611 bases of DNA from Escherichia coli (GTDB lineage: Bacteria; Pseudomonadota; Gammaproteobacteria; Enterobacterales; Enterobacteriaceae), in the NCBI RefSeq assembly GCF_003334355.1, contig NZ_QOWP01000105.1; one strand, 5' to 3'. Positions 1 to 465 of the stretch are shown here, in pieces (the stretch's first letter is position 1; each line of letters starts with the position of its first letter). The position numbers and the translations under genes are program-made. The notes below the pieces were generated by a model. It worked only from the letters and a program-made list of their open reading frames with translations. It was not told the origin of the DNA and made no database searches.

Positions 1-465
1 TTTGTCATGCAGCTCCACCGATTTTGAGAACGACAGCGACTTCCGTCCCAGCCGTGCCAGGTGCTGCCTCAGATTCAGGTTATGCCGCTCAATTCGCTGC
101 GTATATCGCTTGCTGATTACGTGCAGCTTTCCCTTCAGGCGGGATTCATACAGCGGCCAGCCATCCGTCATCCATATCACCACGTCAAAGGGTGACAGCA
201 GGCTCATAAGACGCCCCAGCGTCGCCATAGTGCGTTCACCGAATACGTGCGCAACAACCGTCTTCCGGAGCCTGTCATACGCGTAAAACAGCCAGCGCTG
301 GCGCGATTTAGCCCCGACATAGCCCCACTGTTCGTCCATTTCCGCGCAGACGATGACGTCACTGCCCGGCTGTATGCGCGAGGTTACCGACTGCGGCCTG
401 AGTTTTTTAAGTGACGTAAAATCGTGTTGAGGCCAATGCCCATAATGCGGGCGGTTGCCCGGCAT
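1..465 (-). CDS. insB: InsB, catalytic part of the IS1 transposase, expressed as the InsAB' fusion; 3'-partial (about 12 codons plus stop lie beyond position 1); frame is -1 relative to insA
   Basis: My own translation from the ATG at 465..463 down to position 1 gives 155 sense codons with no stop: [155 protein letters not shown]. This matches IS1 InsB as I recall it. It is absent from the supplied ORF track, presumably because there is no in-window stop codon. Confidence 0.9.

Follow-up and report, generated by a model that had tools for sequence, protein, structure and literature searches.

The 611-nt stretch of Escherichia coli DNA analysed here (hereafter, the window) is almost certainly an internal segment of a canonical 768-bp IS1 element of the IS1A type, which encodes InsA and, through a programmed -1 frameshift, the fused transposase InsAB'. 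The minus-strand frame that is open from ATG 465..463 to the window edge had been described in the first-pass annotation as an intact insB reading frame. It is indeed a true IS1 coding frame, but very probably not a self-standing gene starting at ATG 465; this ATG is a nominal start only, and the transposase arises by frameshift from insA. Nothing in the sequence speaks against the canonical IS1 explanation. The feature is already known, IS1 being among the best-studied insertion sequences, and no new biology is involved. The features on which the following analysis is based are as follows.

384..611, minus strand: insA residues 17-91 and the TAA stop (386..384), from the ORF list, NF033558 (positions 10-81), NF050000, pN/pS, and the full-length copy L002.
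402..408, minus strand: A6C slippery heptamer A AAA AAC (IS1 nt 307-313), the programmed -1 frameshift site joining insA to insB', from the sequence, 10 of 10 variants, PMC12428005, PMC12903888, and RefSeq.
1..405, minus strand: insB' frame portion of InsAB' (residues 86-220 of 232), the catalytic DDE domain, from the translation, PF03400, NF033558, pN/pS, and the C-terminus in L002.
409..465, minus strand: nominal 5' end of 'insB' (ATG 465..463 and 18 codons before the slip site), open in the insB frame and evolving only as insA.
2..286, plus strand: antisense shadow ORF of 94 aa with a TTG start, not a gene, from the mechanical ORF list.

The window corresponded to the reverse complement of IS1 nt 104-714 (window position = 715 minus the IS1 coordinate). 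It was aligned without gaps to IS1A of K-12 (NC_000913.3 19796-20563), with which it shared 607 of 611 bases, the remainder being four substitutions. By Megablast, at least nine E. coli chromosomes were found to contain a copy 100% identical over the full 611 bases, and these copies were annotated as 'IS1 family transposase / IS1-like element IS1A family transposase'. Of the 5426 complete E. coli genomes, 4970 contained matches (median, 11 places per genome). Among plasmids, at least 5000 records contained related copies; the genera represented were Escherichia, Klebsiella, Salmonella, Enterobacter, and Shigella, among others. Since the ends of the element, the insA start, and the insB' stop lie outside the window, the intactness of the window's own copy was judged from identical copies elsewhere. 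One of these, in strain P276M (L002), was full-length: it measured 768 bp and had imperfect inverted repeats of 23 nt at its termini. This element was flanked by the 9-bp direct repeat ATGAACGCG and split grxA, and this target duplication is the signature of an IS1 insertion; both the inverted repeats and the duplication were observed in L002, the 611 bases of the window stopping short of the element ends. At the window's own locus, GTCATCGGGCATTATCTGAACATAAAACACTATCAATAA followed by the right inverted repeat would be expected below position 1. Promoter and terminator consensus scans of the window gave no sites of either kind, which fits the location of the IS1 promoter in the left inverted repeat, outside the window. 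Furthermore, a search of both strands of the window against Rfam (E up to 1) gave no match, so that no curated RNA family was assigned to the IS1 frameshift region, and a PDB sequence search with the fused protein (E up to 1) returned no solved relative.

Translation of the minus strand from 465 to 1 gave 155 codons without a stop, as stated in the first-pass annotation, and the translation ends with ...SVELHDK. The open stretch reaches 7 codons further upstream, to position 486 (162 codons), and is preceded there by TGA. As had been presumed, the frame was absent from the mechanical ORF list, which includes plus-strand 2..286 and minus-strand 384..611, only for want of an in-window stop, because the lister omits ORFs that run off either end. 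As many as 8% of Markov-1 random 611-mers contained at least 155 open codons in one of the six frames (p ~0.08); hence, openness was not used as evidence, and the case was built on homology. The assignment of the frame to the catalytic (DDE) moiety of IS1 was borne out by two profile searches. Residues 37-155 of the frame matched positions 1-119 of the 131 in Pfam DDE_Tnp_IS1 (PF03400) with E=1.1e-70, and the insB-frame part alone scored 145.9 bits against NCBIfam NF033558 (IS1 family transposase), the cutoff of which is 100. The C-terminal continuation that had been predicted, VIGHYLNIKHYQ and a stop, was found exactly in L002, which is 100% identical over the window; 12 more codons follow beyond window position 1, and the stop codon is TAA, 39 bp past that position. 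In the earliest papers, insB was reportedly the 125-aa ORF starting from the in-frame ATG at IS1 376-378 (window 339..337), with the upstream extension designated B', so that 'insB' has been defined in two different ways over time. This second in-frame ATG (window 337-339, minus strand) encodes the M of AEMDEQW and stands 125 codons before the insB' stop.

The role of InsA is that of a repressor and DNA-binding protein, and its residues 17-85 (window 611..405) double as the N-terminal part of InsAB'. The insA part alone scored 81.3 bits against NF033558. The model for the IS1/IS1595 zinc-binding domain (NF050000) matched residues 1-24 of the window's insA fragment with 35.5 bits against a cutoff of 28; the first Cys pair of this domain (CPSC) is outside the window and is present in the identical copy. 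The full insA gene was read in L002, where its GTG start is located 48 nt beyond the high end of the window, with GAGG 7 nt upstream of the GTG.

The slip motif at 408..402 is located just upstream of the insA TAA at 386..384, and the -1 frame is open through and beyond it. When the insA frame up to AAA (407..405) was joined to the -1 frame from 405 downward, a fused protein of 204 aa was obtained within the window, corresponding to InsAB' residues 17-220. This protein matched NF033558 in one unbroken stretch (profile positions 9-199 of 199) with 235.2 bits, a score higher than that of either part alone, and no break was seen at the junction; the IS1 model was the sole NCBIfam model above its cutoff for the whole fused protein. 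Built from the identical full-length copy, InsAB' and InsA had 232 aa and 91 aa, respectively, which agree with the sizes in PMC12428005. The sequence TTAAAAAACTCAGGCCG was invariant in all 10 IS1 variants compared. In 9 of the 10 PGAP records inspected, the RefSeq/PGAP annotation consisted of a single 698-nt CDS assembled from two joined segments and carrying the note 'programmed frameshift'; the tenth (L005) had the same 698-nt span and programmed-frameshift note, but was flagged as a pseudogene with an internal stop.

Across the 25 nt that begin with the slip motif and end with the insA stop (window 384-408, IS1 307-331), 2 columns varied among the IS1 variants, compared with 18 of 57 immediately upstream; outside this stretch, the same variants diverge by as much as 13%. 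Such near-invariance is expected where both frames are translated and a slip signal is present. A nested fold of the 113 nt from the slip site on gave -32.7 kcal/mol versus -34.4 +/- 3.3 for shuffled sequences (z = +0.52), which is not unusually stable and thus lends no support to a nested stimulatory structure, the fold tool being blind to pseudoknots. A pseudoknot at the IS1 frameshift region is mentioned in the literature.

Taken together, these features point to one transcript, running from right to left in window coordinates, that carries two overlapping frames. The majority of ribosomes would translate insA from the GTG beyond the window to the stop at 386..384 and yield the 91-aa InsA, a zinc-finger/HTH protein expected to bind the IS1 ends and repress the IS1 promoter. 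Some ribosomes, a minority put at about 2% in the literature, would move back one base on A AAA AAC and continue in the -1 frame through window 405..1 and the 39 bp beyond it. The resulting 232-aa InsAB' would combine the DNA-binding domain of InsA at its N-terminus with the DDE catalytic domain at its C-terminus. The frame noticed in the first-pass annotation is this -1 frame, ATG 465 and the following 18 codons being the part in which no stop happens to occur over the end of insA. The identity, coordinates, frame structure, selection pattern, and annotation were obtained in this study; the occurrence and rate of the frameshift and the roles of InsA and InsAB' are taken from the literature. 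InsA has been reported to bind both IS1 ends and to repress the IS1 promoter, and a -1 slip at A6C by ~2% of ribosomes to produce InsAB', in which zinc-finger, HTH, and DDE motifs are found (PMC12428005, PMC12903888). In the same reports, transposition increased ~1000-fold once the frameshift requirement was removed, and IS1 transposition is described as mainly replicative, with 8-9 bp of the target duplicated (PMC12428005, PMC12903888).

The position at which the coding frame switches was examined by comparing the window with nine other IS1 copies (87-99% identity, all 768 bp, gap-free). The pN/pS values were summed over window-versus-variant pairs, which are phylogenetically non-independent. 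For the insA-only region (IS1 104-249), the ratio was 0.08 with the insA frame versus 2.1 with the insB frame; for the insB-only region (IS1 332-714), it was 0.10 with the insB frame versus 3.3 with the insA frame; and for the 57 nt that start with the ATG and end just before the slip site (IS1 250-306), it was 0.22 with the insA frame versus ~10 with the insB frame. In the last region, 38 non-synonymous differences were counted in the insB frame versus 1 synonymous difference. A count of alignment columns, which avoids the pseudo-replication, gave the same answer: 13 of the 18 variable columns in IS1 250-306 were insA third positions (equivalent to insB-frame first positions), and 51 of 71 in the insB-only part were insB third positions. 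The frame-specific selection and the column counts place the switch of the coding frame at the slippery site instead of the ATG, and window 409..465 is probably not translated in the insB frame.

These results bear directly on the model in which translation is initiated at ATG 465 to yield a self-standing 167-aa InsB, as was proposed in the first-pass annotation and as is recorded for K-12 MG1655. In favour of this model, the frame is open and does contain the ATG, the sole start-like codon in the insB frame upstream of the slip site. The older K-12 MG1655 record also lists insB1 as a separate 504-nt CDS at the position of ATG 465, with the product 'IS1 family protein InsB'; this curated entry indicates that the proposed model was a conventional, traditional one and not an invention, although it is not the functional one. 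Against initiation at this codon, the 19 N-terminal codons carry the 38 versus 1 substitutions described above, and the start is replaced by TTG in a variant that is annotated as intact (L004, 87% identical), in which the 19 'N-terminal' residues read LPCHRTTNGRGPQHHFAPF. Examination by eye of the sequence upstream of ATG 465, ATGGCCATGAATGGCGTTGG, revealed no Shine-Dalgarno-like sequence with a GGAGG-like core, unlike the region upstream of the insA GTG. Moreover, the IS1 family profile is seamless across the slip site, and the RefSeq CDS is a joined one. According to the literature, insB' is not translated alone and the transposase is the transframe InsAB' (PMC12903888, PMC12428005), and there is no experimental evidence for translation of insB' into protein (PMC12903888). 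We therefore regard a self-standing insB as highly improbable.

Another explanation concerns not the product but the step at which the frames are joined, namely that InsAB' results from RNA polymerase slipping on the A6 run during transcription rather than from ribosomal frameshifting. The two processes cannot be told apart from the sequence alone, and A runs reportedly serve as transcriptional slippage sites in some IS elements (Baranov et al. 2005, Genome Biology). For efficient slippage by the polymerase, however, six consecutive A residues are few. In addition, IS1 recoding is ascribed to ribosomal -1 frameshifting at A6C (PMC12428005, PMC12903888), and slippage by the polymerase seems very unlikely here. 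Ribosomal frameshifting from insA into insB' is the reading that we retain, and the appropriate gene model for IS1 accordingly consists of the transframe CDS (InsAB') and InsA, not of separate insA and insB genes. Codon-position counts across variants can locate such a switch of the coding frame, in this case the slippery site; the importance of the result is limited to annotation practice.

Of the complete ORFs listed for its region, plus-strand 2..286 is the longest and, if the list were followed, would be taken as a true gene over positions 1-286. The distrust of this ORF expressed in the first-pass annotation was justified. The ORF had no match in NCBIfam (E up to 1), and five related IS1F-like copies (L004-L008) each contained one or two stops within it. 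Nothing was annotated on the plus strand in any record inspected, and the opposite strand carries the Pfam match with E=1e-70, so that the chance of its being a gene is close to nil. Its third positions coincide with those of insB', which makes stops scarce; coinciding third positions on opposite strands are a typical source of long 'shadow' ORFs. When an ORF caller needs an in-window stop, genes running off a fragment are missed, and an antisense shadow ORF may be promoted instead.

The four substitutions that distinguish the window from IS1A of K-12 are as follows.

588 (C127T in IS1 coordinates): synonymous in insA.
453 (A262C): synonymous in insA.
437 (G278A): V75I, a replacement that falls within the HTH region in both InsA and InsAB'.
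271 (T444G): S130R, in the catalytic part of InsAB'.

The two amino acid replacements, V75I in the HTH region and S130R, relative to the active K-12 'consensus' IS1A/IS1E, bear on the activity of this copy and not on its identity, as the copy could be a transpositionally inactive IS1 variant despite its open frames. K-12 copies with only 9 mismatches have been reported to be almost immobile (PMC12428005), which would be in line with such a loss of activity. On the other hand, at least nine strains carry copies identical over the window, the chromosomal loci of which differ, and their records have 10 to at least 40 IS1 places, of whichever variant; we consider inactivity unlikely. The spread of identical copies over different loci rather suggests that this variant may have been mobile recently.

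Several strains with copies identical over the window had at least 40 IS1 places per record, of whichever IS1 variant, and some of these high-IS1 strains belonged to ETEC-associated serotypes, e.g., O6:H16 and O25. It would be a long shot to suppose that low-level use of ATG 465 gives a free 167-aa catalytic protein without the DNA-binding domain, which modulates transposition in trans, or, separately, that V75I and S130R make this copy unusually active; the latter, if true, would explain the high IS1 copy numbers (at least 40 places per record) in several carrier strains.

Candidates for the catalytic D-D-E triad were assigned in InsAB' from resemblance to the DDE motif, as follows.

334..336, minus strand: D109 of InsAB' (motif AEMDEQW), candidate for the first catalytic Asp.
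163..165, minus strand: D166 of InsAB' (motif WMTDGW), candidate for the second catalytic Asp.
88..90, minus strand: E191 of InsAB', candidate for the catalytic Glu.

D109, D166, and E191 were invariant in the 10 variants, which are too close to one another for this invariance to be informative, and the assignment of these residues as the triad is a putative one. The D-D-E residues of IS1 are the subject of Ohta et al. 2002.

With regard to related elements, IS1A and IS1E of K-12 ('consensus', 768 bp) have the same layout as the window, including the A6C site, the insA stop, and the insB' frame; from IS1A, the window differs by the four substitutions listed above. The IS1F-type and more distant variants L004-L008 (87-92% identical) have the same length, frames, and slippery motif with its flanks, and all of them are annotated with a programmed frameshift. 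In these variants, 8-13% of nucleotides differ, mostly at third positions of whichever frame codes. L004 lacks the ATG at IS1 position 250, and L005 contains an internal stop and is annotated as a pseudogene. The IS3 and IS150 families (OrfA/OrfAB) likewise have a DNA-binding regulator ORF upstream and a catalytic frame downstream, with a -1 slip on an A-rich heptamer that gives rise to a fusion transposase (PMC12428005); they belong, however, to a different transposase family, and no sequence match to the window's protein was seen.

Some individual copies showed features of their own. The identical IS1 copy in strain 203740 (L001, 1444-2217) had no detectable 9-bp target duplication. It adjoins a truncated type I restriction S-subunit gene, with an unrelated esterase-like gene on the other side, which suggests that this locus arose through a deletion mediated by IS1 or through recombination between copies rather than by simple insertion. 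In the IS1F-like copy L005 (NZ_CP149500.1 4438540-4439237), CAG is changed to TAG four codons past the slip site in the insB' frame (LRP*SVT). L004 (plasmid p1368KP_NDM-1, 81064-81761), the most divergent IS1 seen at 87% identity, lies inside a mer operon remnant on an NDM-1 plasmid, and its A6C motif and both frames are intact despite the TTG at IS1 position 250.
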